Positions 9,461-48,442 of a DNA stretch of 64,000 nt are shown here, piece after piece; within the stretch, counting starts at the first letter, position 1; the number at the start of each line of letters is the position of its first letter. A program made the translations under genes and the position numbers. The DNA is taken from NCBI GenBank assembly GCA_046330415.1, contig JAXLSW010000009.1:3162-67161 (forward strand), read 5' to 3'. The notes beneath the pieces were generated by a model. The model ran no database searches. It saw only the letters and a program-made list of their open reading frames with translations, and had not been told where the DNA came from. Source of the stretch: Solirubrobacterales bacterium. Its GTDB lineage: Bacteria; Actinomycetota; Thermoleophilia; Solirubrobacterales; 70-9.

Positions 9461-9499
9461 GCGCGGTGCCGCCCGCTTCGCGTGTGATGTGATGCGCGG

Positions 9500-32621: not shown

Positions 32622-32636
32622 GATGGCCGCCGCCCC

Positions 32637-33389
32637 TCAGTGCTCGTGGTGCTGGACGACGACGGCGCGCTCACCGCCGTCGAGCACGATCATCTCGCCG
32701 CCGTAGGTGCGGGCCAGGAGCTCCGGTGTGAGGTCCTCGGGCCGGACGAAGCCGACCTGCGTCCCGTGCAGGCAGACGACGGCGTCGAACGCCCGTGCCT
32801 GGTGGATGTCGTGGGTGGAGACGAGCATCGCGTGGCCGTCCTCACGCAGCTCGGCCAAGACCCCGAGGATGCGCTCGGCGGAGGGGCCGTCGACCCCGCT
32901 CAGCGGCTCGTCGAGCAGCAGCACCCGGGCGTCCTGGGCGAGGGCGCGAGCGATCAAGACGCGCTGCCGCTGCCCACCGGAGAGCTCGCCGAACCGCACC
33001 CCGGCGCGTTCGGCCAGCCCGACCCGTTCGAGCGCAGCCTCCGCGCGCTCCCTGTCGGCGCGGCCGCTCGGCCGCCACCAGGGGGTCGTCGCGTACGTAC
33101 CCATCCGCGCGACATCGAGCGCGCTCACGGGGAAATCGAGGCGCGCCCGCTCGGTCTGCGGGACGTATGCCACGGCGGCGTTGACCCGAACCGTCCCGGA
33201 GCGCTGCGGGGTCTCTCCGAGCAGCGCGCGGAAGAGCGTCGTCTTGCCACCCCCGTTCGGTCCGAGGACGGCCGTGATGCTTCCGGCGGGCGCATCGAAG
33301 GAGACATCGCTGAGGGCGGCAACGCCGGGCCGGTACCCCGCCACAAGACCCTCGACCTCGAGCAGCGTCTCACCCGTGCTCGCGCTCAC
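32637..33389 (-). CDS. Metal ABC transporter ATP-binding protein (TroB/ZnuC type)
   Basis: Walker A GPNGGGKTT, signature LSGGQRQR, Walker B LLLDEP. Confidence 0.9.
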   Translation of the reverse strand: MSASTGETLLEVEGLVAGYRPGVAALSDVSFDAPAGSITAVLGPNGGGKTTLFRALLGETPQRSGTVRVNAAVAYVPQTERARLDFPVSALDVARMGTYATTPWWRPSGRADRERAEAALERVGLAERAGVRFGELSGGQRQRVLIARALAQDARVLLLDEPLSGVDGPSAERILGVLAELREDGHAMLVSTHDIHQARAFDAVVCLHGTQVGFVRPEDLTPELLARTYGGEMIVLDGGERAVVVQHHEH

Positions 33390-34225
33390 CGGGCCGCCTC
33401 CGCTGCCTTGGGCTCGGTGGCCTGGAGGGCGACGGCGCGGCCGACTGCCGCGACCGCGAACACCACGCCCCCGAGCACGGCGATCGCCGCTCCCGGGGGC
33501 GCGTCGAGCTCGTAGGCGAGGAGCAACCCGCCGACCCCCTCGGCCAGCGCCAGCGCCGCCGCCCCGAGCTCGAGCCGGGGAACGCTGCGCGCGAAGAGGC
33601 GGACGGTCGCGGCGGGGACGACGAAGATCGCCGCAACGAGAAGCGAGCCGACCGCGTCGAGCGATGCGACCACCGCGATGGCGATGGTGACGACGAGCGC
33701 GAGGTCGGCGCTCGCGGCGCGGAGCCCGAGCGCGCGCGAGCCGGCGGCGTCGAACCCCGATGCGATCCAGGTGTCGCGGAAGAGCAGCGCAGCAACGAGT
33801 GCGACGGCGAGCGCCGCGGCGGTGAATCGCAGCTCCCCGGCCCCGATGCCGAGCAGCGAGCCGAATAGCGCCGCATCGACACCCGCTCCCGATTCGAAGA
33901 CGTCGCTCGCGAGCACGATTCCGACGGCCAGCGCGAGGACGAGCAGCAGTGCGGTGGCCGCGTCCGTCGCGACCCCGGCCCGCTTGGAGAGGCGCTCGAG
34001 CAGTGCGGCGAAGCCGCCACCGACGCCGAGGGCGGCGATGGCGGGCGGGATGCCCGCCGGCCCCGCGATCACCAGTCCGGGGAAGGCGGCCGCGCCGACG
34101 CTGTGGGTGAAGAAGGCGAGCCGGCGGAGGACGATCTGCGCGCCGAGCAGGCCGGCGAGGGGCGCGAGCAGCGCGATCTCGAGCGCGGCGCGCTGCATGA
34201 AGGGGAGCTGGAAGGGGTCGAACAT
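33386..34225 (-). CDS. Metal ABC transporter permease (ABC-3/TroC type)
   Basis: MFDPFQLPFMQRAALEIALLAPLAGLLGAQIVLRRLAFFTHSVG. 4-nt overlap with the ATPase gene. Confidence 0.85.
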   Translation of the reverse strand: MFDPFQLPFMQRAALEIALLAPLAGLLGAQIVLRRLAFFTHSVGAAAFPGLVIAGPAGIPPAIAALGVGGGFAALLERLSKRAGVATDAATALLLVLALAVGIVLASDVFESGAGVDAALFGSLLGIGAGELRFTAAALAVALVAALLFRDTWIASGFDAAGSRALGLRAASADLALVVTIAIAVVASLDAVGSLLVAAIFVVPAATVRLFARSVPRLELGAAALALAEGVGGLLLAYELDAPPGAAIAVLGGVVFAVAAVGRAVALQATEPKAAEAAR

Positions 34226-34254
34226 GGCGCGGTTGAGGGTCGCTGCGGCGGCCC

Positions 34255-34311
34255 GAAGTTGAGATCGAATCTCGATTATGCCACGAAGTTGAGAACGGCT
34301 ATCGTTATCGA
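34255..34311. promoter_or_regulatory. Two tandem A/T-rich imperfect palindromes (candidate Fur/Zur boxes) in the divergent permease/fur promoter region
   Basis: GAAGTTGAGATCGAATCTCGATTA contains TTGAGAT-N3-ATCTCGA. GAAGTTGAGAACGGCTATCGTTATCGA contains GAGAACG-N5-CGTTATC. Both share the GAAGTTGAGA arm. Confidence 0.45.
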
Positions 34312-34312
34312 C

Positions 34313-34792
34313 ATGGCCACGAAGGCGAGAAGCTCAGCGAGCGTCGAGACACCTCCCGCGGCGGCGTGGGTCGAGCGGGCCGAGGATCAGCTCCGCCAGG
34401 CCGGCCATCGCGCGAGCGCCCCGCGCCGCGCCGTGCTCGAGCTGATCGGCGATCAGGAGTGCGTGCTCACGGCGCGCGAGATCGCCGATGAGCTGCGCGC
34501 CGGCGGCCGAGAGGTCGGCGTCGCCACCGTCTACAGGACGCTCGAGCTGCTGGAGGAGATGCGGCTCGTGCAGCGACTCGACACCGGTGGCGGCTCCGCC
34601 CGCTACGAGCCGGCGATGCCCGACGGCGAGCACCATCACCACCACCTCGTCTGCGACTCCTGTGGGCGCGTCACCCCGTTCTCCGACGACCGCCTCGAGC
34701 GGGCGATCCACGATCTCGGTGAGCGCCTCGACTACCGCGTGGCGGGTCACGACGTCGTCATGCGCGGCATCTGCCCGCGCTGCTCCGCCTGA
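34313..34792 (+). CDS. Fur-family metalloregulator (Zur/Mur-like)
   Basis: PRRAVLELIGDQECVLTAREIADELRAGGREVGVATVYRTLELLEEMRLV. HHHHHLVCDSCG...CPRC metal sites. The start is the ATG at 34313 within ORF 34103-34792. Confidence 0.85.
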   Translation: MATKARSSASVETPPAAAWVERAEDQLRQAGHRASAPRRAVLELIGDQECVLTAREIADELRAGGREVGVATVYRTLELLEEMRLVQRLDTGGGSARYEPAMPDGEHHHHHLVCDSCGRVTPFSDDRLERAIHDLGERLDYRVAGHDVVMRGICPRCSA

Positions 34793-34801
34793 GCGCAGCT
34801 C

Positions 34802-35737
34802 TCAGCCGGAGCCGAGCGCGCAGGCAGCCCCGGCGTTCCCGCCCGTGAACCCGGCGGCGAGCGCCTCCGTGTTCGATCGCATCGCCGCCAGGTACGTGGC
34901 CCCGTCGGAGTCCTCGGGCCCCAGTGTGTCGGCCCAGAGCTCGCCGCCGACGCTCGCACCGGCCTCCTCCGCGATCGTCCGCTCGAGCTCCGCCGTCGTG
35001 CCCTCCTCGGGGAAGACCGCGTTGACGCCGGTGCGGCGGATCGTCTCGACGAGGTCCGCGGTCTCGCCGGCGGACGCCTGCGCCTGCGTGCTCAGCGACG
35101 GGATCGCCGCCCCGACCACCTCGATGCCGAAGCGGTCGGCGTAGTAGCCGAGCGCGTCGTGGCTGGTCACGAGCAGCCGCTCGTCGGCGGGGATCGAGCC
35201 CATGCAGGCGGCGATCGAACGGTCGAGGCGGCGGAGCTCCGCGAGGTAGAGCCTGGAGTTGCGCTCGTACACGTCGACGCCATCGGGGTCGACCTCGGCG
35301 AGCCCGGCCGCGATCGCCTCAACGGCCAGCTGGGCATTGCGGGGGTCCTGCCACCAGTGTGGATCGATCTCGCCGTCCTCCTCCCGGGTCTCGACGTCGT
35401 CGATCAGCGTCAGCTCGGGAGCATCGCTTCCAGAGGCCTCGACAAGCTGATCGAGCCAGGCGTCGACGTCGCCCCCTGAGCGCACGATCAGATCGGCGTC
35501 GACGAGCGACTCGGCGTCGCTGGGGCGAGGCTCGTAGTCGTGGGGGTCCGAGCTGGGGGAGAGGATCTGCGTCACCGCGACCCGGTCGCCGCCGACCTCG
35601 CGGACGAAGTCGGCCACCTGCGGCGTCGTCGCGGCCACGCGCACCGCGGCGCCTGAACCGTCATCCGCCTCCCTGCAGCCGGAGATGAGGACACCTGTGA
35701 GTCCCGCGGCCAAGATGAAACTGATAATCGTTCGCAT
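34802..35737 (-). CDS. Metal ABC transporter substrate-binding lipoprotein (TroA/ZnuA type)
   Basis: Lipobox LISGC. DPHDYEP and DPHWWQDP metal-binding His motifs typical of cluster A-I binding proteins. Confidence 0.85.
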   Translation of the reverse strand: MRTIISFILAAGLTGVLISGCREADDGSGAAVRVAATTPQVADFVREVGGDRVAVTQILSPSSDPHDYEPRPSDAESLVDADLIVRSGGDVDAWLDQLVEASGSDAPELTLIDDVETREEDGEIDPHWWQDPRNAQLAVEAIAAGLAEVDPDGVDVYERNSRLYLAELRRLDRSIAACMGSIPADERLLVTSHDALGYYADRFGIEVVGAAIPSLSTQAQASAGETADLVETIRRTGVNAVFPEEGTTAELERTIAEEAGASVGGELWADTLGPEDSDGATYLAAMRSNTEALAAGFTGGNAGAACALGSG

Positions 35738-35805
35738 CAACGATCGCGGAGTCTACAACTGCAACTGCGCCATGGGGCGCGGCACCCTCGTAGGCTCATC
35801 CGCCG

Positions 35806-38061
35806 ATGGAGACCAGCGGATGGATCAAGGCGGGCGCGCTGGTTCTCGCCATCGTGATGGCGGTGTCCCTCGGGACCGCCGTCCGGAGCGAGGCCGCCGT
35901 CCGCATCGGCGCCGAGCGAATCGAGCTGACCACGCGGGGCGCCGGTGTCGAAGTCCGGCGCGACCCGCTGCGCATCACCTTCACGGACGGCCGCGGCCGT
36001 CCGGTCCTCAGCGAGCTGCAGGGCACCCGCAGGGCGTCTCGGCTCGTCCCGCCGGTCCCGCGCTCCCAGTTCGCGATCGCCGATTCGCCTCCGCCCACGC
36101 TCTACGCGCCGCTCACCTTCCTGGTCGGCTCCACCGGCATCGAGCAGACTCCGGGCAACATCTGGGAGGGCACCCTGCGCTCGGTCACCGAGGGCGGGAC
36201 GGAGTACGGCGCCACCGCGGTCAGGGCCGCGAGGCGCAGCGGACCCGGTGTCCGTCTCGTGCTTGCGACGTCCGACCCGAGTGGACGCAGGCTCGTCGTT
36301 CGCCTCGCGCCGGGGCCTTCGCCAGGGACCATCGCGCTGTCGGCGGCCCCCAATGACCCCGAGGGAGTCGCCGCGATCGGCGACTCCTTCTCCTCAGCCG
36401 GGTCGGAGGCATTCCGGGGCTTCGGTGGTCGCCACGACCGGCTCGATCAGCGCGGCACCGAGTTCTACAACTGGACGCAGCAGGAGAACCTGAGCTCCGG
36501 CTCGGCGAGCGCGTTCACGCCGGTCGTCCCGGGCGGCGAGGATCACCTCTTCCCCAATGGGCCCCACGCCGCCTACTACGTCCAGTCCTCGTTCATCTCC
36601 TCCTCCGGTTACGGCTTCCTGCTCGACCGCGACGAGCTCTCCCACTGGCGGTTGGCCTCCGATCGCCCCGATGCCTGGCAGGTCCAATCCTTCGGCTCGC
36701 GGCTCGACTACGTGGTCGCGCCCGGCACCGCGCCGGAGGCCATCGGCAAGATCACGTCGATCAGCGGTCGCCAGCGTGTTCCCCCGAGGTGGGCGCTTGG
36801 GCAGATCCTCGACCGCGAGGTGATCTACGAGAACGACTCACCGTCGAAGTACGAGGCGGAGGTGCGCCAGGACCTCGCCGACTTCGACCGCTACGGCATC
36901 CATCCCAGCGCCTACCGGATCGAGGGCTGGCAGTTCCTGCCCGACGACGTCCTCGCCGAGATCATCGCCGAGCTACGCCGGCGGGGCATCCATCCCATGG
37001 TCTACTTCCGCGCCTTCGTCGGCAAGGACGAGATCGGGACGGACGATCCGAGCGCATACGACGAGGCGCTCGCCAAGGGCTACGTCGCCACCCATGCAGA
37101 CGGCACGCCGTACACGTTCACCTCCAACTTCAACGCTGATGGAGCGCAGATCGACTTCACCGATCCGGACGCCGTCGCCTGGTGGCAGGATCGCGTCCGC
37201 CGCGCCCTCCAGCTCGGCGCCGACGGGTTCATGCAGGACTTCGGCGAGCAGGTCCTCAGCGACATGCATTTCGCCGACGGCTCCACGGGCGCGACGATGC
37301 ACAACCGGTTGCCGGTGCTCTTCCACCGGGCCACGTTCGAGGCCGTGCGCCGCTTCGAGCGCTCGCATCCGGGGCGTCACATCTTCTACTTCACCCGCGC
37401 CGGCTACTCGGGCAGCCCCGGTTCGGCGCGCTGGGAGTTCGCCAACTTCCCCGGCGACGAGACCACGGACTGGACCCGCTCCTCCGGCCTCGCCTCCCTG
37501 ACGCCGGACATGCTCAACCGCGGCATCGGCGGGGCCTATGGGTTCTCGACCGACATCGGTGGGTACTTCGACGTCGCGCTCTACCAGCCGACCACCAAGG
37601 AGCTGTTCATCCGCTGGGCGCAGTGGGCGGCGCTCTCGCCGATGTTCCGTCTTCACGGCTCAGTCGGCGCCGGCGTTCACATGCCGTGGACCTTCGACGA
37701 GGAGACGCTCGACCGCTACCGCGCTCTCGCTCGGCTGCACGAGCGGGCGATCCCGCTGATCCAGCGGCTGTGGAAGCGCGCGCGGAGGACCGGGATCCCG
37801 ATCGCCCGGCCGCTGTGGCTCAGCTATCCGAAGGACCCGGCCGCCGCTTCGCAGGATCAGGAATGGCTGCTCGGGCCCGACCTCCTGGTGGCACCGGTCG
37901 TCGAGCAGGGGGCGAGCACGCGGCGGGTTCACTTCCCCCGCGGCTGCTGGCGGACCCGCGGTGGTGAGCGCTACTCCGGACCCTCCGACGTCACCGTCGC
38001 GGCGCCGCTCTCGCGTCTGCCGTTCTTCATCCGCTGCGGCGCTCACCCGCTGGATCGCTGA
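35806..38061 (+). CDS. Secreted glycoside hydrolase family 31, intact paralog of the gene at 6986-9460
   Basis: Signal peptide. FRGFGGRHDRLDQRG. GADGFMQDFGE catalytic-region motif. GDETTDW...STDIGGYF. Confidence 0.85.
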   Translation: METSGWIKAGALVLAIVMAVSLGTAVRSEAAVRIGAERIELTTRGAGVEVRRDPLRITFTDGRGRPVLSELQGTRRASRLVPPVPRSQFAIADSPPPTLYAPLTFLVGSTGIEQTPGNIWEGTLRSVTEGGTEYGATAVRAARRSGPGVRLVLATSDPSGRRLVVRLAPGPSPGTIALSAAPNDPEGVAAIGDSFSSAGSEAFRGFGGRHDRLDQRGTEFYNWTQQENLSSGSASAFTPVVPGGEDHLFPNGPHAAYYVQSSFISSSGYGFLLDRDELSHWRLASDRPDAWQVQSFGSRLDYVVAPGTAPEAIGKITSISGRQRVPPRWALGQILDREVIYENDSPSKYEAEVRQDLADFDRYGIHPSAYRIEGWQFLPDDVLAEIIAELRRRGIHPMVYFRAFVGKDEIGTDDPSAYDEALAKGYVATHADGTPYTFTSNFNADGAQIDFTDPDAVAWWQDRVRRALQLGADGFMQDFGEQVLSDMHFADGSTGATMHNRLPVLFHRATFEAVRRFERSHPGRHIFYFTRAGYSGSPGSARWEFANFPGDETTDWTRSSGLASLTPDMLNRGIGGAYGFSTDIGGYFDVALYQPTTKELFIRWAQWAALSPMFRLHGSVGAGVHMPWTFDEETLDRYRALARLHERAIPLIQRLWKRARRTGIPIARPLWLSYPKDPAAASQDQEWLLGPDLLVAPVVEQGASTRRVHFPRGCWRTRGGERYSGPSDVTVAAPLSRLPFFIRCGAHPLDR

Positions 38062-38139: not shown

Positions 38140-38526
38140 GTGGACGCCAGCAACCTGAAGCGATTCGCCCTGTTCAAGGACGTAGAAGAGAGCGCCTTGG
38201 GCAAGATCGCGCCCTACACGATGCTGGTCGAGTTCGCCGAGGGCAAGACGATCATCCAGGAGGGCGGCTTCTCCAACGACTTCTACGCGATCGACGAGGG
38301 AACGGCCAGGGTGGAGCGCTCCGGTGAGGAGATCGCGACGCTCGGTCCCGGCGACGTCTTCGGCGAGCAGGGTCTGCTCGAGAAGCAGGAGCGCTCAGCC
38401 TCGGTGATCGCGACCTCGCCGCTGCGCGCGCTGAAGATCGAGCACTGGGAGATCCCGCGCATGCGCCGCGCGATGCCCGAGGTGCTGGAGCAGCTCCAGC
38501 GCACGGTCGAGGAGCGAAGCTCCTAG
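38140..38526 (+). CDS. Stand-alone cyclic-nucleotide-binding domain protein
   Basis: LFKDVEESALGKIAP...FAEGKTIIQEGG...FYAIDEGTARV...LGPGDVFGEQGLL...RSASVIA is the cNMP-binding fold signature. Confidence 0.8.
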   Translation: MDASNLKRFALFKDVEESALGKIAPYTMLVEFAEGKTIIQEGGFSNDFYAIDEGTARVERSGEEIATLGPGDVFGEQGLLEKQERSASVIATSPLRALKIEHWEIPRMRRAMPEVLEQLQRTVEERSS

Positions 38527-38576
38527 CGCGAGCTCCCGTCGCGGGCGGTACGCTGCCGCACCAGTACAAGTACATA

Positions 38577-38735
38577 CGGCCGGTGGGCCAGGGAAGTCCG
38601 GTGAGAAACCGGCGCGGTCCCGCCACTGTGACCGGGTGAGGACGTCGCACGACGCGAGTCAGCCACTGGGAGCCGACGAGGCCCCGGGAAGGCGCGGCAT
38701 CAGGACCCGGAAGCCAGGAGACCTACCTCCGGCCG
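38577..38735 (+). ncRNA. Cobalamin (AdoCbl-type) riboswitch
   Basis: P1 CGGCCGG (38577-83) pairs with CCGGCCG (38729-35). Core GGGAAGTCCGGTGAGAAACCGGCGCGGTCCCGCCACTGTGA, a second GCCACTGGGA...GGGAAGGCG, and the B12 box GAAGCCAGGAGACC (38711-23). Confidence 0.85.
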
Positions 38736-38770
38736 CAGCCATGTAAACCCTCGAGGAAAGGGTGGCATCG

Positions 38771-39704
38771 ATGCCTCTCAATCACTCACGTTCCCGCGCG
38801 ATCGCCGCAGCCCTGATGGGCTCGCTGCTCGTCGCGCTCTCGTTCGCTTCGATCGCCGCGGCGGCGAAGACCAAGGCGGTTCCGGCCGAGCTCCGGGTCG
38901 TCGACGGCAAGGGCCGCGTGCTCGCCGAGCAGACCCAGTACACGGGCAACCCGTCGACCATCAAGACCGACCCGAAGGCGACCTGCTTCGGCCCCGATGA
39001 CGGCGGCTCAGGCGACAAGGTCGAGATCCCGGCGCCGACCGCGATGAGCCTGCTGGCCGACGGTGGCGCAACCGACAGCGCCATCAAGCCCCTGTCGATC
39101 ACCGACGCGTTCAGCTTCGGTCTCGGCCTCTGCGGGATCGGCAAGACCGTCGCGCCGTCCACGGGCGCTGGGCACTGAACGTCAACCACGCTCAGGCGGA
39201 GTCCGGCGGTGACTCGACGACGGTCAGCTCCGGCGACGACTCCGCACGGTCCTCTGGTACCTCGTCAAGGACTTCAACGACCCGTCTCCGGCGGAGCTGG
39301 TCCTGAAGGCGAAGCCGGCCAAGAACGGTGAGATCCCGGTTCAGGTCTTCGCCTACGGCGCCGACGGCAAGAAGACTCCCGCGGTCGGAGCGGGCGTCAC
39401 CGGCGCCGACGACGTCACCGACAAGAAGGGCAAGACGGTCGTCGCCGCCGACGGCAAGGTCGTCGACATCGTCGCGACTCTCGACGGCGCGCTTCCGTCC
39501 AACGAGGCGTCCGTCTGCACGGTCAAGGCCAAGCAGTGCCCGTCGGGCTACGCGGGGATCGTCGCCGGGACCAAGGGCGACGACAAGATCACGATCGACA
39601 CCCCGGTCACGGTCCTGTGCGCCGGCGGCAAGGACGTCGTCAAGGTCAAGGGCGGCGTCCGGTTCAAGGCCAAGGGCTGCGAGCAGGTCCAAGAGTCGAA
39701 GTAG
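38771..39704 (+). pseudogene. Secreted DUF4430 (transcobalamin beta-domain-like) protein. As assembled it needs two -1 frame corrections.
   Basis: Signal peptide MPLNHSRSRAIAAALMGSLLVALSFASIAAAA. Frame 2 stops at 39178. The text continues as (W)ALNVNHAQAESGGDSTTVSSGDD in frame 1, then VLWYLVKDFNDPSPAEL...GTKGDDKITID...ESK* in frame 3. Frame 3 is a 450-nt coding-looking stretch with no start codon. Confidence 0.65.
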
Positions 39705-39746: not shown

Positions 39747-40727
39747 ATGCTGATCGGCATCGTCGCGGCGGGCGGCTGCGGGTTCGGGCCGGGCGAGTCG
39801 GAGCCGGGGGAGGCGAATCTGCGGGTCACGCGAGACTTCGGCTCCGAGCTGATGGTCGACGCCACGCTCACCGATCCAACCGAGTCCGACTCGGTCGTCC
39901 GCTTTCTCGACGACAACGCCGAGGTCGAGACCTCCTACGGCGGCAACTTCGTCGACGCGATCAACGGCGTCGCCGGGAGCACCGTTCAGGGTGGTGACGA
40001 CGACTGGTTCTTCTTCGTCAACGGCTACTACTCCGAGATCGGCGCCGGCGAGGCCCGGGTCCACGCGGGCGACCGGATCTGGTGGGACTACCGCGACTGG
40101 CAGCAGGCCTACCGCGTTCCGGCCGTGGTCGGTTCCTTCCCGGAGCCGTTCCTGCACGGTGAGAGCGGCGGGGAGGCGCCGGAGGTGACCCTCGAGTGCG
40201 TCGGCGGGGCCGGGCAGGGCGATGCTTGCGCCACGGTCGCCGACGCTCTCGACCATGCCGGGATCGATGCGGAGGAACGCGACCTCGATCGGCCTGAGGC
40301 GAGCGGCGACGCGTTGCGGATCCTGGTCGGCGAGTGGTCCGACCTCAGCGACGATCCCGCCGCCGCCCAGCTCGAGGACGGGCCCTCCGCCAGCGGCGTC
40401 TACGCGACGGTCGCATCCTGCGGTGATCAGGGTGGCGATGGCGGCGATGGCGGCTACCGGCTCGAGGTGCTCGGCTCCGACGCGAAGCCGCGGCTGCAGC
40501 TCGCCGACGCGGGGTTCGTGGCGGCGGTTCGCCATCGCGAGGATCCGCCCACCTGGGTCGTCGCCGGCACCGGTCCCGACTCCGTGCAGAGGGCCGCGGC
40601 GCTGCTCGGCGAGGACACGCTTCAGGACCGCTATGCCGTCGCGGCCGGGCCCTCGGGAGAGCCGGTCCCGATGCCGGCTCCCGACGAGCTCGACATCCCG
40701 GAGAAGGAGTCGGCCCCATGCGGCTGA
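39747..40727 (+). CDS. DUF4430-domain lipoprotein
   Basis: Lipobox-like IVAAGGC. SVVRFLDDNAEVETSYGGNFVDAINGVAG...DWFFFVNGYYSEIGAGEARVHAGDRIWWDY is the DUF4430 signature. Confidence 0.75.
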   Translation: MLIGIVAAGGCGFGPGESEPGEANLRVTRDFGSELMVDATLTDPTESDSVVRFLDDNAEVETSYGGNFVDAINGVAGSTVQGGDDDWFFFVNGYYSEIGAGEARVHAGDRIWWDYRDWQQAYRVPAVVGSFPEPFLHGESGGEAPEVTLECVGGAGQGDACATVADALDHAGIDAEERDLDRPEASGDALRILVGEWSDLSDDPAAAQLEDGPSASGVYATVASCGDQGGDGGDGGYRLEVLGSDAKPRLQLADAGFVAAVRHREDPPTWVVAGTGPDSVQRAAALLGEDTLQDRYAVAAGPSGEPVPMPAPDELDIPEKESAPCG

Positions 40728-41647
40728 CGAGCCCGCTGGCCTACGCGCCCCGCCGGGGCCCGCTCGGCACCGCGCGCCCATGGATCGCCGCGGTCTTCCT
40801 ACTGCCCCTCGCGGTTGCCGCTTTCACATTCGCCAACCCGATCGTGCTGCTGGCTGCGGGCGCCGCCGCCCTTCTCGCCGGGGTCCTCTCCGGGGCCGGT
40901 GCCAGCGTGCGGGCGCCGCTGCGCTGGACGATCGGCCTCGGGGTGATGGTCATCGCCGTCAACGCGATCGCTTCCCAGCGCGGCGCGACGATCCTGCTTC
41001 GCGGCTGGGAGATGCCGGTCCTCGGCCAGATCGATGTCAGCCTCGAGGCGCTCGTCGAGGGTGCGGTGCTGGCGCTGCGGATCATCGTCGCGCTGCTCGT
41101 CTTCTCGGTCTGGTCGGCGTGCGTGGACCCCGACCGGATCCTGCGTGCGATCCGCCCGATCGCCGCCCGCTCGGCGCTCACCGCGACCCTGATCGCGCGG
41201 CTCGTCCCCCTCGCGGCCGCCGACGCCGCGCGGCTCGGCGAGGCGAGCGCGCTGCGCGGTCCCGCGGCGACTCCGGTCGGCAAAGCCGCGATCGCGCGCC
41301 GGCTCGTCGCCGGGGCCCTCGATCGCTCCGTCGACGTCGCCGCCACGCTCGAGCTCCGCGGCTACGGCCTCGGCACGCGGTCGCGGATGCCGAGACACCG
41401 GCGCGTCGCCGGCGAGATCCCGTTGCTCGTCTGCGGCTTGCTCTCGCTGGGGATCCTGATCGCCGCCGGGCTCAGCGGCGCGGCGGCCTTCGACGCCTAT
41501 CCGCGAATCGATATCGACACCGACCTCGCCACGTTCGCACTGGCCGGAGCGATCGTCGCGCTCGCCTGGCTGCCCTTCGCGCTCGAGACCCTGCGCCTGC
41601 GCAGGCGCCCGCGGGTGAGCGTTGGGGAGGTGGTCCGCGTTGGCTGA
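40718..41647 (+). CDS. ECF transporter transmembrane (T) component, CbiQ/EcfT family
   Basis: Polytopic membrane protein. ...RSALTATLIARLVPLAAADAARLGEASALRG...LDRSVDVAATLELRGYG carries the Ala-Arg-Gly coupling-helix-type motifs. Overlaps both neighbours. Confidence 0.8.
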   Translation: MRLTSPLAYAPRRGPLGTARPWIAAVFLLPLAVAAFTFANPIVLLAAGAAALLAGVLSGAGASVRAPLRWTIGLGVMVIAVNAIASQRGATILLRGWEMPVLGQIDVSLEALVEGAVLALRIIVALLVFSVWSACVDPDRILRAIRPIAARSALTATLIARLVPLAAADAARLGEASALRGPAATPVGKAAIARRLVAGALDRSVDVAATLELRGYGLGTRSRMPRHRRVAGEIPLLVCGLLSLGILIAAGLSGAAAFDAYPRIDIDTDLATFALAGAIVALAWLPFALETLRLRRRPRVSVGEVVRVG

Positions 41648-43268
41648 TGTCGCGCTCAGCTGCAGCGGCCTCGACTACCGCTATCCGGGTTCGCCGAGCC
41701 TCGCCCTTCGCGGGATCGACCTCGAGATCACCCGCGGTGAGTTCGTCGTCTTGGCGGGCTCGTCGGGCTCGGGCAAGAGCACGCTCCTTCGCGCCGCCTG
41801 CGGGCTGGTCCCTCACTTCCACGGCGGCGAGATCGCCGGAGACGTCAGGGTCGGCGGCCGCACGACGCGCGAGATCGGGCCGGCCGAGCTCGCGAGCGCC
41901 GTCGGTTTCGTCGCCCAGGAGCCCGAGACGCAGGTTGTCTCGACCACCGTCGGCGCCGAGCTCGAGCTGCCGATGGAGCTGCGCGGGGCGGGTGCCGTCG
42001 AGACCGCAAGGGCGGTCGAGGAGGCTGCGCTGGCCCTCGGTATCGAGGGGCTGCTCGAACGCACCACGGACACCCTCTCCGGCGGCGAGCTGCAGCGTGT
42101 CGCGCTCGGCGCGGCGCTGGTCACCGGTCCCTCGCTCCTGCTGCTCGACGAGCCCACATCGCAGCTCGACCCCGTCGCCGGTGACGAGCTGATCGCGCTC
42201 CTGCGGCGGCTCAACGAGGAGTGGGGGGTGGCCGTGCTGCTTGGTGAGCACCGGCTCGAACGCTGCCTCGCCGCCGCCGACCGGGTTGTGGCGCTCGACG
42301 CCGGGGAGAAGGTCTTCGACGGGCCGACGGATGAGTTCGGCGGCTACGCGCGTCGCGCGGCGCCCGCTCTCGCGACGCCGGTCATGCGGCTCTTCGAGCT
42401 CGCGGGGATCGATTCCAGCCCGGCGACGGTCAAGGGCGCGCGCGAGAAGCTAGTGGCTCTGGGTCGGCTGGACGAAGCGGCGGCGGGAACCCACACCGCG
42501 CCCGGGCTTCCACCGCAGCGCCGCGACGGCACAGCGGCGCTGCGCGCTCGCAACCTGCAGGTCGAGCTCGAGGCGGCCGAGATGGTGAGGCCGGTGCTGC
42601 GGGGCGTCGACGTCGAGGTCAGCGCCGGGGAGCGGGTTGCGCTGATGGGTCCCAACGGGGCCGGCAAGAGCACGCTGCTTCGCACCGCCGCCGGTCTGCT
42701 CCCGGCGAGCTTCGGCTCGATCGAGGTCCCGAGCGGTTGCGCGCTTCTCTCACAGCGTCCCGACGACTACCTCGTCCGCGAGCGCGTCGGCGACGAGCTG
42801 CCGGGCGAGGCGGGCCGCGCGGCGCTCGCCGCGGTCGGGCTCGACGTCTCCGCCGACGCCGACCCGCGCGATCTCTCCGGCGGTGAGCGTCAGCGACGCG
42901 CGCTCGCCATCGCGATGGCGGGCCGTGGGGCCGGTGGCTCGGCGCCCGGGCTCGTCTGCCTGGACGAGCCGACGCGCGGGCTTGACCGCGCCCGCAAGGA
43001 CGCGCTCGCGGCCTGGATCGAGGAGCTCGCAGCGGCGGGCTCGGCGGTCGTCGTCGCCACCCACGACGTCGAGTTCGCCGCCCGGTTCGCGACCCGCGTC
43101 GTCCTCCTCGCCCGCGGCCGCGTGATCGCGGACGCCGATCCCCGCGAGGCCCTGGGGGGCGGCTGGTACTTCGCGACGGAGACGGCGCGGATCACCGGTG
43201 GCCGAGCGGTCACGCCGGAGCAGGGGGCGGCCCTGCTGCTCCCCGCCCGCGAGGGGGCGGAGCTGTGA
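41622..43268 (+). CDS. Fused tandem ECF/ABC ATPase (EcfA1-EcfA2-like, CbiO family)
   Basis: Two complete cassettes: GSSGSGKST/LSGGELQR/LLLDEP and GPNGAGKST/LSGGERQR/VCLDEP. The start may be GTG 41622 or TTG 41640. Confidence 0.85.
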   Translation: MGRWSALADVALSCSGLDYRYPGSPSLALRGIDLEITRGEFVVLAGSSGSGKSTLLRAACGLVPHFHGGEIAGDVRVGGRTTREIGPAELASAVGFVAQEPETQVVSTTVGAELELPMELRGAGAVETARAVEEAALALGIEGLLERTTDTLSGGELQRVALGAALVTGPSLLLLDEPTSQLDPVAGDELIALLRRLNEEWGVAVLLGEHRLERCLAAADRVVALDAGEKVFDGPTDEFGGYARRAAPALATPVMRLFELAGIDSSPATVKGAREKLVALGRLDEAAAGTHTAPGLPPQRRDGTAALRARNLQVELEAAEMVRPVLRGVDVEVSAGERVALMGPNGAGKSTLLRTAAGLLPASFGSIEVPSGCALLSQRPDDYLVRERVGDELPGEAGRAALAAVGLDVSADADPRDLSGGERQRRALAIAMAGRGAGGSAPGLVCLDEPTRGLDRARKDALAAWIEELAAAGSAVVVATHDVEFAARFATRVVLLARGRVIADADPREALGGGWYFATETARITGGRAVTPEQGAALLLPAREGAEL

Positions 43269-45232
43269 GCTGGCAGGCTGCGTCCTTCACGATCCTCGGG
43301 CTTGCCCTGCTGGGCGGCTTCGTCTGGTTCGAGCGCTCGCGACCCCCCGCTCGCCTGGTCGCCGCGGTGGCGGCGATGGCGGCGCTCGGGGTCGCCGGGC
43401 GGCTCGCGCTCGCGCCGATCCCCAACGTCGTCGCCACCACCGACGTGGCGCTCCTGGCCGGCTACGCGCTTGGCGGAGCCCCCGGCGTCGCGGTCGGGGC
43501 GCTGTCGGGGCTCGTCTCCAACTTCTGGCTCGGGCAGGGGCCCTGGACCCCGTGGCAGATGGCGGGGTGGGGGATGGTCGGGATCGCCGGCGCGGTGCTC
43601 GCGCGGGCCAGCGGGAGGCGGATGAGCAGGCTCGGGCTGGCCTGCGTCGGCGCGCTCGCGGGTTTCGCGTACGGAGCGCTCCTCGATCTCTCGGTGATGA
43701 TCGAGTTCGGCGGGGAGCAGTCGCTGGACCGGTATCTGGCGCTCAGCGCACGCGGTCTCCCCTTCAACATCGCGCACGCGGCCGGTAACTTCGTTCTCAT
43801 GCTCGCCGCGGGACCCGCCCTCGTCCGCATGCTCGATCGCTATCGCGATCGGTTCGCGTACCGCTGGAGCGATTCTCCGCTCGGCCGTTCTGTCGCCTCC
43901 CTCGCGCTCGTCGCCTGCCTGCTGACCCCGCTGCTCTCCCCTGACCGCGGCGCCGCGGCCCAGGGTCGCGACGGCGCCCGAAGCTGGCTGATCTCCGCCC
44001 AGAACGACGACGGCGGCTACGGCACCGGCCCCGACGTCGACTCCGCCACCGACATGACCGGGTGGGCGATGGTCGGCCTCGCCGCCGCCGGCGTCAACCC
44101 GCGCGACGTTGCGACCGGCGGCAACACCCCAGTCGAGTACCTGCGCAAGAGCATCGACGACATCTCCTCCATCGGCGACCTCGAGCTTACGATCCTCGGG
44201 CTCGAGGCCTCGGGGCTCGATTCGCGCGCCTTCCAGGGGCGCGACCTCGTCGCCGAGCTGCGCAGCAAGGAGCGCGACGACGGCTCCTACCAGGGTCAGG
44301 TGAACCTGACCGCCTTCGCGATCCTCGCCCAGCGCTCCGCCGGGGTGGAGGGAGCCAACGTCGGCAAGCCCGCCAGCTGGCTGCGCTCCGTCCAGATCCG
44401 CAACGGCGGCTGGGCGTCGGTGCCGAAGGGGGAGAGCGAGCCTGATTCCACCGGTTCCGTGATGCAGGCGCTGAAGGTCGCGCCGGGCGCGCACGGCCCG
44501 ATCCAGGACGGGGCGAAGTGGCTGGAGCGCAACCAGCACAAGGACGGTGGCTGGTCGCTGACGGAGGGTGGGACCTCCAACTCGCAATCCACCGCGTGGG
44601 CGATCCAGGGGCTCACCGCGGCCGGGATCAGCGCCGGGACGATCCGCAACGACGGCAACAGCGGCATCGACTTCCTCTACTCGCGTCAGTCGTCGAGCGG
44701 CTACTTCGCCTACTCCGGCTCGAGCGACCAGACGCCCGTGTGGGTGACCTCCCAGGCACTGATGGGCGTCATGAAGGTGCCCTTCCCGATCGCCGCCGTG
44801 CCTCGTGAGAAGCCCGACGACAACGGCGCCGACAACGACTCCACCGGCGGGACGTCAACGCCCCCGAGCAGCTCGCCGCCCACCTATCCGACCTCGCCGA
44901 GCCCGAGCCTGCCCGGCGGCGGACTCGACCTCGGTGGCCTCGGCGGCGCCGACTCCGGTGGCTCCAACGGCGGCGGCAACCCGGGTCCCGGCGGCTCCAG
45001 CCCCGGATCTGGGCTGCCCGACGGCCTGCCGGAGGGCGAACTTCCGACCGGTCCCGACGACGGCGAAGACGCCCCGCTGGACACCTTCGCGCAGAGCGCC
45101 GCGACGCCGCTGCCGGAGCTCCCCTCGCAGGACTCCCCGCTGCCGGGGACGATGGTCTTCCTGGCCGGTATCGGGCTGCTGGCGGCCGGTCTCGGTGCGG
45201 GGTTCCTCCACTACCGCCGCCGCCAGCTCTAG
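43265..45232 (+). CDS. Fusion protein: ECF S-component-like membrane domain, prenyltransferase/squalene-oxidase-repeat (alpha-alpha toroid) domain, P/S/G-rich stalk, and a sorting-signal-like C-terminus
   Basis: N-terminal 5-6 TM helices (IPNVVATTDVALLAGYALG..., GPWTPWQMAGWGMVGIAG...). Five repeats: NDDGGYG, RDDGSYQ, RNGGWAS, KDGGWSL, SSGYFAY. Tail LPGTMVFLAGIGLLAAGLGAGFLHYRRRQL. GTGA overlap with the ATPase gene. Confidence 0.7.
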   Translation: MSWQAASFTILGLALLGGFVWFERSRPPARLVAAVAAMAALGVAGRLALAPIPNVVATTDVALLAGYALGGAPGVAVGALSGLVSNFWLGQGPWTPWQMAGWGMVGIAGAVLARASGRRMSRLGLACVGALAGFAYGALLDLSVMIEFGGEQSLDRYLALSARGLPFNIAHAAGNFVLMLAAGPALVRMLDRYRDRFAYRWSDSPLGRSVASLALVACLLTPLLSPDRGAAAQGRDGARSWLISAQNDDGGYGTGPDVDSATDMTGWAMVGLAAAGVNPRDVATGGNTPVEYLRKSIDDISSIGDLELTILGLEASGLDSRAFQGRDLVAELRSKERDDGSYQGQVNLTAFAILAQRSAGVEGANVGKPASWLRSVQIRNGGWASVPKGESEPDSTGSVMQALKVAPGAHGPIQDGAKWLERNQHKDGGWSLTEGGTSNSQSTAWAIQGLTAAGISAGTIRNDGNSGIDFLYSRQSSSGYFAYSGSSDQTPVWVTSQALMGVMKVPFPIAAVPREKPDDNGADNDSTGGTSTPPSSSPPTYPTSPSPSLPGGGLDLGGLGGADSGGSNGGGNPGPGGSSPGSGLPDGLPEGELPTGPDDGEDAPLDTFAQSAATPLPELPSQDSPLPGTMVFLAGIGLLAAGLGAGFLHYRRRQL

Positions 45233-45250: not shown

Positions 45251-46975
45251 ATGATCACCCGGGACTCAGCGCTTGCCGCCCTCAGCGGAGAGCGCTTCGA
45301 CGTCGTCGTGATCGGCGGCGGGGTGACGGGCGCCGGCGTCGCGCTCGATGCCGCATCGCGCGGCTACTCGACCGCGATCGTCGAGCGCGACGACTGGGCC
45401 ATCGGGACCTCGAGCCGCTCCTCGAAGATGGTCCACGGAGGGCTTCGTTACCTGCAGAACTTCGATCTCGGGCTGGTGCGAGAGGCGCTGCTGGAGCGGC
45501 AGCTCATGGTCCACCTCGCACCGCACCTCGTCTACCCGACGCCCTACCTCGTCCCTCAGCTCGGTGACGATCGCCGCGACGTCAGGGTCGGGATCGGGCT
45601 CAACATGTACGACGTGATGGCGACCACGCGGGTCGGCCAGGGACGGCGCCAGCGCGGCGGCGGGCGCCGTGAGCGCGAGCGAGTCGCGGACCTCGCAGGG
45701 GGCGATGTCCCGCCCGAGTCCTGGGCGCCGGACCGCCACCGGACGATCCCCGGCGAGGAGGTCGTCGAGATGATCCCCGCGCTCGCATCGCGCGAGCCCA
45801 GGTCGGCCTACCTCTTCTACGACTGCCAGACCGACGACGTCCGCCTCGTCCTGACGATCCTCGGCGAGGCGGAGCGCTACGGAGCCGTGATGGCGAACCG
45901 ACTCGAGGTCACCTCGTTGCTCGAGCGCAACGGCAAGGCCGACGGGGTCGTCTGCCGGTGCGGCGAGAGCGGCGCGACGGTGGAGATCCAGGCCGACAAC
46001 GTGATCAACGCGACGGGGGTCTGGGCCGACCGGATCCGTCCCGACGAGATCCTCGACGAGACCGAGGTGCCGAGGATCGCGCCGAGCCGCGGCACCCACC
46101 TGACGCTGCCGCTGGAGAAGCTGCCGCTCGAGCACGCTGCGTGCATCGTCCCGGCGGGGAGCGGCCGCACGATCTTCGTTCTGCCCTGGTACGGACGGGT
46201 CCTGGTCGGTACCACCGACAACGACTACGACGGCGACATCGATCACGTCCGGCCCGGAGGCGACGACATCGACTACCTGCTCGACGCGGTCAACTCCTAC
46301 TTCGAGACCGAGTTGGGGCGCGGCGATCTGACCGGCGCCTACGCCGGGGTCAGGCCGCTGATCTCGACCGGCGATCCGAAGAAGTCGGTGGACATCTCGC
46401 GCAAGGCGGAGCTCTACGAGACCTCCTCGGGCCTGCTGACGATCACCGGCGGCAAGCTGACCACCTGGCGTCGCATGGCGAAGCTGGTCGTCGACCGGGT
46501 CGCGATGAGGGACGGCAGCGAGCAGCCCTGCCGGACCACCGAGGTGCCAGTGGGGATGGCGGCCCGCGAGGAGGATCTCGCGCCGCCCGACGGCGTCGAT
46601 GCCGGAGCCCTCCCGGAGGGCTATGCCGAGCAGCTCGCCTTCCGTTATGGACACGCGTCGCGCGCGGTCCTGGCCGTCGCCGCCGAGCGCCCGGAGCTGG
46701 CAGCCCCCATCGTCGAGGGTCGCCCGGATCTCCTCGCGGAGGTCGTCATCGCTGCGCGCCGCGAGCAGGCCCGCTCGCTTGCCGATGTCCTGCTGCGACG
46801 GACGCGCCTCGGGATCCTCGCAGCGCCGCAGCTGCGGACCGCCGAGTCGGTCGCGGCGGTCGCGGCAGCGCTCGGCGGTGAGCTCGGATGGAGCGAGGAC
46901 GACATCCGCGCCGCAGCCGAGGCGTGGCCCGGCCAGCTCGACGCCGAGGGCGCCGACCCCGCCGCGAGCGCCTGA
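45251..46975 (+). CDS. glpD: FAD-dependent glycerol-3-phosphate dehydrogenase
   Basis: DVVVIGGGVTGAGVALDAASRGYSTAIVERDDWAIGTSSRSSKMVHGGLRYL. About 575 aa. Confidence 0.9.
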   Translation: MITRDSALAALSGERFDVVVIGGGVTGAGVALDAASRGYSTAIVERDDWAIGTSSRSSKMVHGGLRYLQNFDLGLVREALLERQLMVHLAPHLVYPTPYLVPQLGDDRRDVRVGIGLNMYDVMATTRVGQGRRQRGGGRRERERVADLAGGDVPPESWAPDRHRTIPGEEVVEMIPALASREPRSAYLFYDCQTDDVRLVLTILGEAERYGAVMANRLEVTSLLERNGKADGVVCRCGESGATVEIQADNVINATGVWADRIRPDEILDETEVPRIAPSRGTHLTLPLEKLPLEHAACIVPAGSGRTIFVLPWYGRVLVGTTDNDYDGDIDHVRPGGDDIDYLLDAVNSYFETELGRGDLTGAYAGVRPLISTGDPKKSVDISRKAELYETSSGLLTITGGKLTTWRRMAKLVVDRVAMRDGSEQPCRTTEVPVGMAAREEDLAPPDGVDAGALPEGYAEQLAFRYGHASRAVLAVAAERPELAAPIVEGRPDLLAEVVIAARREQARSLADVLLRRTRLGILAAPQLRTAESVAAVAAALGGELGWSEDDIRAAAEAWPGQLDAEGADPAASA

Positions 46976-47032: not shown

Positions 47033-48442
47033 ATGCCAGCACAACTTGAAAACGCGCATCTCGCCGACCTGCACGCGCTCGCCGCGGAGCTCGGTGTGGA
47101 GCGCTTCCGCATGCTTCCCCGCGACGAGCTCGCCGCCGCCATCCTCGAACGCGATCCCGATGCGAGCGTCCCCGAGCGCGAGCCCGAGCCCGAACGCGAC
47201 GGGGACGATGTCGGCTCCGATGCCGAGGAGAGCGGACTCTCTGAGCGCTCGGGAGCCCGCCGCCGCGGACGCCGTGGTGGCCGTGGCCGCCGCGGTGGTG
47301 AGGGTTCGCGAGACGATCGCGACCGCGACCGCGATGGCGACGGGGACGGCGATGGCGAGGACTCCGCCGAGGCGGAGCAGGAGACCGGCGAGCCGGTCAC
47401 GGGCATCCTCGACATCACCCCGCGCGGTCATGGATTCATCCGGATCTCGGGCCTCGGATCCGACGAGGACGACGTCTACGTCTCCCCGTCGCAGATCAGG
47501 CGCTGCGAGATGCGCCGCGGCGACGAGGTCTCGGGCCCGGCCCGCAAGCCGCGGCGAGGCGAGCGCTACCCGGCCCTGATCCACGTCGACACGATCAACG
47601 GCGTCGAGCCCGGCGCCGACGCGAAGCGGCTGACCGACGCGACGCCGGTGCATCCCAGCCGCCGGATCCCGCTGGTGCCCGCCGCGGGCGCGAGCGAGGA
47701 CGAGGCCGTCTTGATTCGCTCGATCGACCTGCTCAACCCGCTCGCCCGCGGTCAGCGGGTGCTGATCGAGGCGGGGGCGGGAACCGGTCGCACGACGCTG
47801 CTGCGCGCGCTTGCCGCGTCACTCGGCGGCGTCGAGGAGCTCGAGCTCGTCGTGCTGCTGATCGACGAGCGCCCCGAGGAGGTTGCGGATTGGACCGAGC
47901 GCGTCGGTGAGGACGCGGTTGCGATCGCCACCGCCGACATGCGCTCCGGCGAGCAGCTTCGCCTCGTCGAGCTCGCCTTCGGCCGCGCCTCGCGCCAAGC
48001 CGAGCGCGGGGCGGACGTCGTCCTCCTCGTCGACTCGCTTTCGCGCATCGCCGTCGCCGCCGACGACCCCGATCGCGTCAAGCCGATCTTCGGCGCCGGT
48101 CGCGAGACGGAGGAGGAGGGCGTGGGCTCGCTCACGGTCATCGCCACGACGCTCGACGACGACTCCGACGAGGGCGACGTGCTGCGTGCGCTCGACACGA
48201 CGGAGAGCTCCCGGATCGTCCTCGATCGTGAGCTCGCCGTCGCCGGCGTCTACCCGGCGATCGACGCCGGCGCCGCGCGCGTCGCCGGCGAGGAGCACGT
48301 CCGCGACGAGGCTGAGCTGACCGCGGCGCGGGCGCTGCGCGCTGAGCTGGCGGGGCTGACCGCGGCGGAAGCCGCGGCGCGCTTGCGCGAGCGGATCGCC
48401 GACACGCCCGACAACGCGGCGCTGCTTGCCTCGCTGAGCTGA
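47033..48442 (+). CDS. rho: Transcription termination factor Rho homolog with an atypical ATPase core
   Basis: Rho_N (LADLHALAAELGVERFRMLPRDELAAAILE). R/D/G-rich insertion. CSD-like VTGILDITPRGHGFIRISG. LLIDERPEEV and VVLLVDSLSRI. The P-loop reads GAGTGRTT (Arg where the canonical Lys sits). Confidence 0.8.
   Translation: MPAQLENAHLADLHALAAELGVERFRMLPRDELAAAILERDPDASVPEREPEPERDGDDVGSDAEESGLSERSGARRRGRRGGRGRRGGEGSRDDRDRDRDGDGDGDGEDSAEAEQETGEPVTGILDITPRGHGFIRISGLGSDEDDVYVSPSQIRRCEMRRGDEVSGPARKPRRGERYPALIHVDTINGVEPGADAKRLTDATPVHPSRRIPLVPAAGASEDEAVLIRSIDLLNPLARGQRVLIEAGAGTGRTTLLRALAASLGGVEELELVVLLIDERPEEVADWTERVGEDAVAIATADMRSGEQLRLVELAFGRASRQAERGADVVLLVDSLSRIAVAADDPDRVKPIFGAGRETEEEGVGSLTVIATTLDDDSDEGDVLRALDTTESSRIVLDRELAVAGVYPAIDAGAARVAGEEHVRDEAELTAARALRAELAGLTAAEAAARLRERIADTPDNAALLASLS

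Follow-up and report, generated by a model that had tools for sequence, protein, structure and literature searches.

Few microbes produce vitamin B12, many scavenge it, and routes of uptake beyond BtuCDF and BtuB are poorly known. Among energy-coupling factor (ECF) transporters, the only one characterised experimentally for B12 is ECF-CbrT of Lactobacillus delbrueckii (PDB 6FNP; Santos et al., 2018, PMC5997447), whose S-component, CbrT (chain 6FNP_A), imports cobalamin and cobinamide. In 2007, operons that combine CbiO and CbiQ with secreted toroid proteins and transcobalamin-like β-grasp (SLBB) proteins were predicted to serve B12 scavenging (Burroughs, Balaji, Iyer & Aravind, 2007, PMC1796856), and such an ECF operon has been described in L. 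sakei (Lsa1836-1840; bioRxiv 10.1101/864751). Here we analyse a 64,000-nucleotide stretch of DNA from a Solirubrobacterales bacterium (contig JAXLSW010000009.1 of assembly GCA_046330415.1, positions 3,162 to 67,161, hereafter the window), in which the last gene of an operon headed by a cobalamin riboswitch encodes a CbrT-like S-component and an α/α-toroid in one polypeptide. Judging from homology and gene context, we think it probable that this S-toroid protein is the S subunit of a dedicated (group I) ECF importer for B12 or related corrinoids, fused to an extracytoplasmic toroid accessory domain. ECF operons with toroid and DUF4430 proteins are already known, and the S-toroid protein is an architectural variant of that predicted type and does not amount to a system of a new kind. 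What sets this lineage apart is the covalent fusion, in which the C-terminal helix is conserved, together with a dedicated module and a riboswitch.

Homology of the S-domain to CbrT extends over nearly the whole length of the latter, and the two systems share EcfT, two ATPase domains, a B12-linked gene context and a DUF4430 gene beside the S-component. The last of these likenesses is a new observation. In Lactobacillus, cbrT is immediately preceded by a gene for a DUF4430 protein of 136-149 aa (4589..4999 in loci L084 and L085 and 96..545 in L086, from Lactobacillus helveticus and from a contig on which CbrT shares 99% identity with the 6FNP chain). It occupies the position of cbrS in the cluster nrdJ-cbrS-cbrT-pduO named by Santos et al. 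(PMC5997447). As far as gene content tells, the pairing of CbrT with DUF4430 is therefore common to the window operon and the characterised Lactobacillus system, which extends it to the sole ECF B12 transporter studied experimentally. The systems also differ. Lactobacillus CbrT stands alone, at ~175-182 aa, and draws on a shared group II ECF module (PMC5997447), whereas the window system has a dedicated module in its own operon, is regulated by a riboswitch, and has an S-domain that continues in one chain with a seventh segment, toroid, stalk and C-terminal helix.

The L. sakei operon has by its description the same parts as the one in the window: an S-component, a fused A-A' ATPase (Lsa1837), a T-component, a secreted β-like protein of the DUF4430 type and a secreted α-like toroid. 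There, however, they are five separate genes in the order S, AA', T, β, α, whereas the window has β', β, T, AA' and S::α; heme was proposed by the authors for the L. sakei system, whereas a cobalamin riboswitch precedes the window operon. The systems of Burroughs et al. (PMC1796856) resemble the window in having CbiO-like and CbiQ-like genes and a second paralogous SLBB gene in the operon. Their reported architectures include toroids fused to SLBB or wall-binding domains, and a toroid::S-component fusion is not mentioned. We found no description of such a fusion elsewhere in the literature, and a 2024 survey of fusions of the S-component fold mentions none of the prenyltransferase, squalene-cyclase or CbrT type. 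The mammalian B12 carriers transcobalamin, intrinsic factor and haptocorrin likewise consist of an α6/α6 toroid and a DUF4430-family β domain, and transcobalamin holds B12 sandwiched between its two domains (PMC1796856). In the carriers both domains belong to one soluble chain; in the window they are on separate polypeptides, with the toroid tied to the transporter.

The identity of the S-domain came from a comparison of the first 212 residues with all PDB sequences, up to E 10. The sole match was 6FNP_A (E 6.1e-12, and E 2.7e-11 in another search), with residues 33-199 of the query aligned to 13-178 of the 182 in the chain; a family profile (A1) gave E 2.4e-14. Pfam ECF_trnsprt scored 22.1 bits on this domain, under its gathering score of 30.7, and the Pfam scan of the 655-aa protein returned no CbiM/NikM-type match. 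Conservation was read from a chain-wide alignment of 75 sequences, from a second of 21, and from 99 relatives for the C-terminal motif and helix. In the 75-sequence alignment, PNVVATTD (aa 53-60) and GPWTPWQMAGWG (aa 92-103) are made up of invariant or nearly invariant columns. The original prediction, made from the letters alone, had taken the N-terminal ~200 aa for an ECF S-component. The significant similarity to CbrT and the six predicted transmembrane (TM) helices bear this out, and by homology the S-domain is a member of the CbrT (B12) family of S-components.

The S-toroid gene is a single uninterrupted open reading frame (ORF), 43265..45232 on the forward strand, of 655 codons, and every motif that the original prediction had listed is found in it, in place. 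Its GTG start overlaps the stop of ecfA-A' as GTGA, with GGAG 4 nt upstream, and its N-terminus, MSWQ, is common to its homologues. The stop/start overlaps in the operon suggest translational coupling of the genes. The chain divides as follows.

43265..43861, forward strand: S-component domain of the CbrT family (by homology to 6FNP_A), aa 1-199, with six predicted TM helices and many invariant columns.
43826..43876, forward strand: conserved Arg-rich linker RMLDRYRDRFAYRWSDS, aa 188-204, predicted to be cytoplasmic; R188, R192, R196 and W201 are invariant.
43889..43960, forward strand: seventh hydrophobic segment (aa 209-225), P226 and AAA-Q (aa 230-233), either a membrane anchor or an internal signal peptide; layout constant, pLDDT 50-67.
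43967..44800, forward strand: α6/α6 toroid, aa 235-512, predicted to be extracytoplasmic; recognised by its AlphaFold2 model, Foldseek and Pfam.
44801..45139, forward strand: disordered stalk rich in Pro, Ser, Gly and Asp, aa 513-625, with low pLDDT, variable in length and poorly aligned among relatives.
45140..45232, forward strand: LPGTM (aa 626-630), Gly-rich TM helix (aa 630-648), HYRRRQL (aa 649-655) and stop, defined by counts over 99 relatives.

Hydropathy peaks along the 655-aa chain fall at six TM helices within aa 1-190, at a seventh segment at aa 206-224 and at a last one at aa 630-648. The full-length AlphaFold2 model, built from the 75-sequence alignment, agrees with this layout. 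It shows a confident helical S-domain, a helix at 205-224, a 12-helix toroid at aa 235-510 with a predicted local distance difference test score (pLDDT) of ~97, disorder at aa 535-624 (pLDDT <50) and a terminal helix at 629-653 (pLDDT 85-89). The low-complexity stalk of ~110 aa that had been noticed in the sequence is thus present, and disordered in the model.

ECF S-components have six TM helices with both termini inside the cell. The loop after helix 6 is Arg-rich (RMLDRYRDRFAYRW), with the family consensus RMLDRYRxRFxxRW, and the last helix of the chain is followed by YRRRLP in the family. By the positive-inside rule, the invariant Arg residues place the linker at aa 188-204 in the cytoplasm. 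Given an N-in domain of six helices, this Arg-rich loop, one further hydrophobic segment and an RRR tail after the last helix, the toroid and stalk are predicted to lie outside the cell, as had been proposed from the extra hydrophobic segment.

The domain beyond that segment is a toroid. The motifs NDDGGYG (aa 247-253), RDDGSYQ (337-343), RNGGWAS (379-385), KDGGWSL (426-432) and SSGYFAY (477-483) had been read as five repeats of the prenyltransferase/squalene-oxidase type, and three methods bear out the fold. In Pfam, SQHop_cyclase_C (37.6 bits), SQHop_cyclase_N (33.1 bits) and Prenyltrans (28.1 bits) were above their gathering scores (families PF13243 and PF13249). AlphaFold2 gave the toroid alone 12 helices, with a pLDDT of 93.2 and a predicted TM-score (pTM) of 0.91. 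Foldseek against the PDB ranked the single-domain class II terpene cyclases 8PAK and 8PAJ first for this model (TM-score 0.70), followed by SsDMS, squalene-hopene cyclase (SHC) and prenyltransferase β subunits. The best NCBIfam match for the toroid region was the SCO2321 family of membrane proteins (NF053823, E 1.1e-29, in three matched stretches), but its 103.6 bits lie far below the cutoff of 300 for that family, on whose function we found no literature.

The fusion is real and is common to hundreds of soil actinobacteria. A protein search with the S-toroid sequence returned 6784 proteins at E ≤ 1e-5, and about 112 of the 120 best protein clusters are about 600-690 aa long with both domains and the same basic tail; a protein identical to that of the window is annotated in a Solirubrobacterales metagenome-assembled genome (MAG). 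When one genome per GTDB species was scanned, 285 genomes (Thermoleophilia) had a relative, and in all 80 of the loci kept from these the domains are fused, within the shared order cNMP-binding protein, DUF4430-like, DUF4430, ecfT, ecfAA', S-toroid, glpD, rho. An exhaustive search of clusters at 50% identity gave 453 matches at E ≤ 1e-30; both domains are present in 90 of the best 150, the remainder being mostly fragments at contig ends. A cobalamin riboswitch lies upstream of the operon in each of eight sampled related loci and in a distant fused locus of 39% identity (L082), that is, in all nine checked, and genes for PduO-type adenosyltransferases occur within or beside related loci.

The operon itself consists of the following elements, with the S-toroid gene as its last.

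38567..38744, forward strand: cobalamin riboswitch aptamer at the operon head (Rfam RF00174, 80.4 bits against a gathering score of 31.5, full-length model match).
38762..39703, forward strand: first gene, a secreted DUF4430-like paralogue, disrupted in the window; intact orthologues in L001 and L005.
39747..40727, forward strand: DUF4430 protein, probably a lipoprotein, counterpart of Lactobacillus CbrS (PF14478, E 3.1e-14, 53.6 bits).
40718..41647, forward strand: EcfT, a CbiQ-type T-component (PF02361 CbiQ, E 4.5e-8, above cutoff), syntenic in all related loci that cover the region.
41622..43268, forward strand: fused EcfA-EcfA' ATPase of 548 aa with two ATP-binding cassettes (two PF00005 stretches; best NCBIfam matches ECF_ATPase_1 and ECF_ATPase_2).

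By its gene content, the operon is a complete dedicated ECF importer under a B12 riboswitch, with the interaction of its subunits predicted from the genes. The riboswitch, the DUF4430 genes and the dedicated ECF module together point to B12 as the substrate. The TTG start of EcfA-A' overlaps the end of ecfT by 26 nt. A scan of the operon for promoters and terminators gave nothing beyond chance.

The two DUF4430 genes merit closer description. Compared with a locus of 88% identity (L001), the first has lost 1 bp near 39167 and gained 8 bp near 39240, which breaks its frame, so that the called ORF ends at 39178; its orthologues in L001 (313 aa) and L005 (329 aa) are intact and match PF14478 weakly. 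It is either a pseudogene or the product of consensus errors in the MAG. The product of the second is probably a lipoprotein, as suggested by a lipobox-like GGCG(F/L)G whose Cys is invariant in four orthologues. In the window only 10 uncharged residues precede this Cys, with no in-frame start upstream, and the orthologue in L005 has a normal basic signal peptide. The ~200 aa on the C-terminal side of the DUF4430 domain match no family, and a PDB sequence search with the protein gave no matches. Residues 334-406 of human transcobalamin, its β domain, match PF14478 as the window protein does (the transcobalamin sequence used is identical to PDB 7QBF_A), and the assignment of the β domain to DUF4430 has been made before (PMC4350170). 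An hhalign comparison of a four-sequence DUF4430 alignment (A5) with the transcobalamin β domain was not significant, the alignment being too shallow, and the link between the two therefore rests on shared Pfam membership.

Put together, these data suggest how the system might work. Under B12 scarcity the riboswitch would permit expression of the operon. The S-domain would insert N-in with its six helices, the seventh segment would export the toroid, and the last helix would re-anchor the chain, leaving the RRR tail in the cytoplasm. The toroid and the DUF4430 protein or proteins would bind the corrinoid on the outer side of the membrane and raise its local concentration, much as the α and β domains of transcobalamin sandwich B12, before handing it to the CbrT-like domain. 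This domain would topple against EcfT, powered by ATP hydrolysis in EcfA-A', and B12 would be freed into the cytoplasm. The Gly-rich C-terminal helix probably packs on membrane parts of the complex and so would hold the capture domain near the S-domain. Alternatively, signal peptidase I may cut after Ala-x-Ala, in which case the toroid would hang by its ~110-aa stalk from the C-terminal helix. There is a parallel among type I ABC importers of Gram-positives, in which OpuA and GlnPQ have classical periplasmic-binding-protein folds fused to the permease. There too an extracytoplasmic capture domain is tied to the translocator and yields a high local concentration, as proposed here, although ECF transporters are defined as lacking binding proteins.

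The weakest step in this explanation is the capture of B12 by the toroid, which is probable from the context of the gene, and several points weigh against the explanation as a whole. Binding and transport of B12 by the S-toroid chain are deduced from homology and context, and the outward topology of the toroid from hydrophobic segments and charges. CbrT by itself has nanomolar affinity for B12 (PMC5997447), which makes it less than obvious why a further capture device should be needed; no toroid gene lies near those Lactobacillus cbrS-cbrT clusters that were examined, and for the related L. sakei system it is heme, not B12, that has been proposed (bioRxiv 10.1101/864751). One of the two DUF4430 genes in the window (38762..39703) is broken. 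Moreover, the toroid shows no significant similarity to the α domain of transcobalamin in any comparison made. Against PF01122 (Cobalamin_bind) it scored 10.3 bits (E 0.33, not significant), and hhalign against the human transcobalamin α domain gave a probability of 0.6%. Chains of transcobalamin, intrinsic factor and haptocorrin were absent from the profile hits of the toroid in the PDB up to E 10, the best 50 Foldseek matches of the toroid in the PDB included no cobalamin binder and transcobalamin was not among them, and Foldseek of the full-length model against the PDB likewise gave no support. We therefore rejected homology of the toroid to the transcobalamin α domain and keep the analogy at the level of the fold class and the DUF4430 partner.

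Among other explanations, a join of two genes by assembly or gene calling might be suspected, the source being a MAG, the neighbouring operon gene carrying two indels and two database relatives being evident read-through or frameshift artefacts; yet hundreds of independent assemblies have the same continuous frame, at identities of 39-88% and with conserved linker residues, which excludes such an artefact for practical purposes. A different substrate, be it cobalt, heme or another tetrapyrrole, is unlikely, though it deserves thought. Cobalamin riboswitches act on cobalt transporters too. Pfam and NCBIfam give the T and A subunits the 'cobalt' names CbiQ and cbiO, and heme uptake was suggested for the related L. 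sakei operon. On the other hand, CbrT is the sole solved S-component that the S-domain matches up to E 10, with no sign of CbiM/NikM in Pfam; DUF4430 is the family of the B12-contacting β domain of transcobalamin; related loci adjoin PduO-type cobalamin adenosyltransferase genes; and a heme importer would have no reason to be under B12 riboswitch control. We regard as highly improbable the idea that the toroid is an active terpene cyclase or prenyltransferase that acts on an envelope lipid and is coupled to the transporter. Its best sequence and structure matches are indeed class II terpene cyclases and prenyltransferase β subunits, and QW-like DGGW repeats are present. However, in the family alignments of 21 and 75 sequences the toroid has no invariant DxDD or DDxxD motif. 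Its invariant Asp residues are isolated, and D394, at a position resembling that of DxDD, stands in the context E-P-D-S-T-G. No Cys or His that could form the Asp/Cys/His Zn2+ site of the prenyltransferase β subunit is invariant or nearly so. The domain is predicted to lie outside the cytoplasm, where prenyl diphosphates are unavailable, and is linked to B12 genes, not to isoprenoid genes. With the catalytic motifs missing and the location outside, no such chemistry is expected, and we infer that the toroid serves in binding, not catalysis.

What becomes of the chain after synthesis is a separate matter. A polyprotein, in which signal peptidase I cuts after A230-A-A232 to leave a free CbrT-like S-component of ~232 aa and a separate toroid, is a serious possibility, if somewhat short of an even chance. 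With the toroid held by the C-terminal helix on a long, wall-spanning stalk, this variant would refine the explanation preferred above and not exclude it. The seventh segment varies in sequence but keeps its layout of basic residues, hydrophobic run, Pro and small-x-small, the n-h-c layout of a signal, in 74 of 75 relatives; in some of them the hydrophobic run has no more than 12-15 residues, which is little for stable membrane spanning. Where relatives are unfused, an ordinary N-terminal signal or anchor occupies this position, and a disordered stalk of 110 aa is hard to explain unless the toroid is free at its other end. A precedent exists in FbcH of Bradyrhizobium, a cytochrome b-c1 precursor that is split at an internal signal sequence. 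Yet Ala-x-Ala is frequent by chance at 72% G+C and the pattern is lenient, the median uncharged run of 21 residues with a hydropathy equal to that of the C-terminal helix fits a stable anchor as well, and for halves that come apart, something else, such as stoichiometry or co-insertion, would have to account for the strict conservation of the fusion. We infer that the segment goes back to a signal peptide that a formerly separate toroid gene encoded, and the chain may be cut there. The proposal that the toroid is tethered at both ends thus stands as far as a hydrophobic helix on either side of it is concerned, and is uncertain in that the signal-peptide-like seventh segment may be cleaved. The tail had also been compared to a sortase sorting signal, which would be cleaved after Thr and would link stalk and toroid to peptidoglycan. 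The tripartite layout of motif, hydrophobic segment and basic tail is present, 80 of 99 relatives keep the Pro of the motif and 75 its Thr, and the isolated window tail reaches 16.0 bits with LPXTG_anchor (TIGR01167; cutoff 15.9). Gram-positive anchors also occur on some proteins of the transcobalamin-like clade (Burroughs et al., PMC1796856). Nevertheless, the family motif before the helix is [L/A]-P-[A/S]-T-P, of which the LPGTM of the window appears from the alignment to be a local variant. Its first position is Ala (41 of 99) more often than Leu (26), and its fifth is mostly Pro (52), followed by Ala (11), Phe (9), Leu and Thr (8 each) and Gly (6). The helix is almost invariant (G-4 in 99/99, L-7 in 95/99, L-11 in 93/99, with R+2 in 99/99), with a Gly-x-x-x-Gly-like spacing, which points to a retained, interacting membrane element, unlike a signal that is discarded. 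A consensus relative scored below the anchor cutoff (14.9), GVDTG_CTERM was below threshold in the NCBIfam scan of the isolated tail (20.5 against 29; the matches cover helix and tail, not the signature motif), the full-length NCBIfam scan of the 655-aa protein listed no anchor model, and no ORF with the TLxTC motif of sortases occurs in the 64-kb window. Cleavage would, besides, detach the toroid from the transporter to which it is fused. From the family motif, the conservation of the helix, the borderline anchor scores and the absence of a TLxTC ORF from the window, canonical sortase processing is very unlikely: the layout seen in the tail is there, and its reading as a sorting signal is not supported.

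Taken as a whole, the first interpretation of the locus was right about the CbrT-like S-component, the toroid and its probable place outside the cell; its sortase reading is not supported, and it missed the riboswitch, the DUF4430 genes and the ECF module. The repeat domain was not predicted to be cytoplasmic, the N-terminal domain was found to be similar to S-components, and the fusion proved to be no assembly join but an architecture kept, with its synteny, in other genomes. More tentatively, we suggest a combined picture that is possible, although we would not rely on all its parts at once. This is an ECF B12 importer with a two-part, transcobalamin-like capture device, whose toroid would be made as a polyprotein with the S-component, released by signal peptidase and kept in the complex by the Gly-rich helix as an extra membrane subunit, and whose DUF4430 half would be of the same kind as CbrS.

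One riboswitch-controlled operon here ties together a CbrT-type ECF importer, DUF4430 proteins and a toroid predicted to be secreted, and the natural fusion of S-component and toroid provides strong genomic support for the view that the transporter itself is where the toroid acts. This raises the question of whether ECF transporters sometimes use extracytoplasmic capture proteins. Should the combined picture above be right, reliance on accessory capture proteins would be a general trait of B12 uptake by ECF-type systems that has been overlooked, and these proteins could be bacterial ancestors of the animal B12 carriers. The locus can also serve as a marker in annotating how Thermoleophilia take up B12; to judge from the matching assemblies, this group is common in environmental metagenomes.

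Variants of the arrangement were also seen. Unfused toroid genes exist, with their own signal or anchor and again beside CbiQ or an ATPase. At L081 (5608..9464), a cobalamin riboswitch, a small ORF, CbiQ and a toroid protein are followed by a fusion of a MerR DNA-binding domain with a PduO-type adenosyltransferase; the toroid protein has its own anchor, stalk and C-terminal helix, and no ATPase or S-component gene is called in the cluster. At L083 (131..2547), a two-cassette ATPase is followed directly by a toroid protein of 325 aa with an ordinary signal peptide but neither stalk nor C-terminal helix, the two genes having no S-domain between them. In the 985-aa protein P0006 (L002, ~7032..9974) the second ATPase cassette is joined to the S-toroid protein. 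It is called as one protein because the ecfA stop is missing, and looks like a read-through or sequencing error, a further fusion being the other explanation. An apparent super-fusion with a nitroreductase domain (P0120) was dismissed as a frameshift artefact.

The operon is flanked upstream by a gene for a small cNMP-binding protein (38140..38526, forward strand) and downstream by those for a GlpD-type glycerol-3-phosphate dehydrogenase (45251..46975, forward strand) and Rho; these flanks are kept in most related loci examined, with no functional link evident. Rho (47033..48442, forward strand) carries a low-complexity insert of ~80 aa, rich in Arg, Gly and Asp (RRRGRRGGRGRRGGEGSRDDRDRDRDGDGDGDGED), between its N-terminal and RNA-binding domains. 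Just upstream of the operon lies a metal-uptake cluster of ZnuA, an ABC-3 permease and an ATPase (31785..35740, reverse strand). The window further holds two GH31 glycosidase genes (7529..9460 and 35806..38061) and encodes several secreted proteins of the FG-GAP, RTX and Ig-like kinds.

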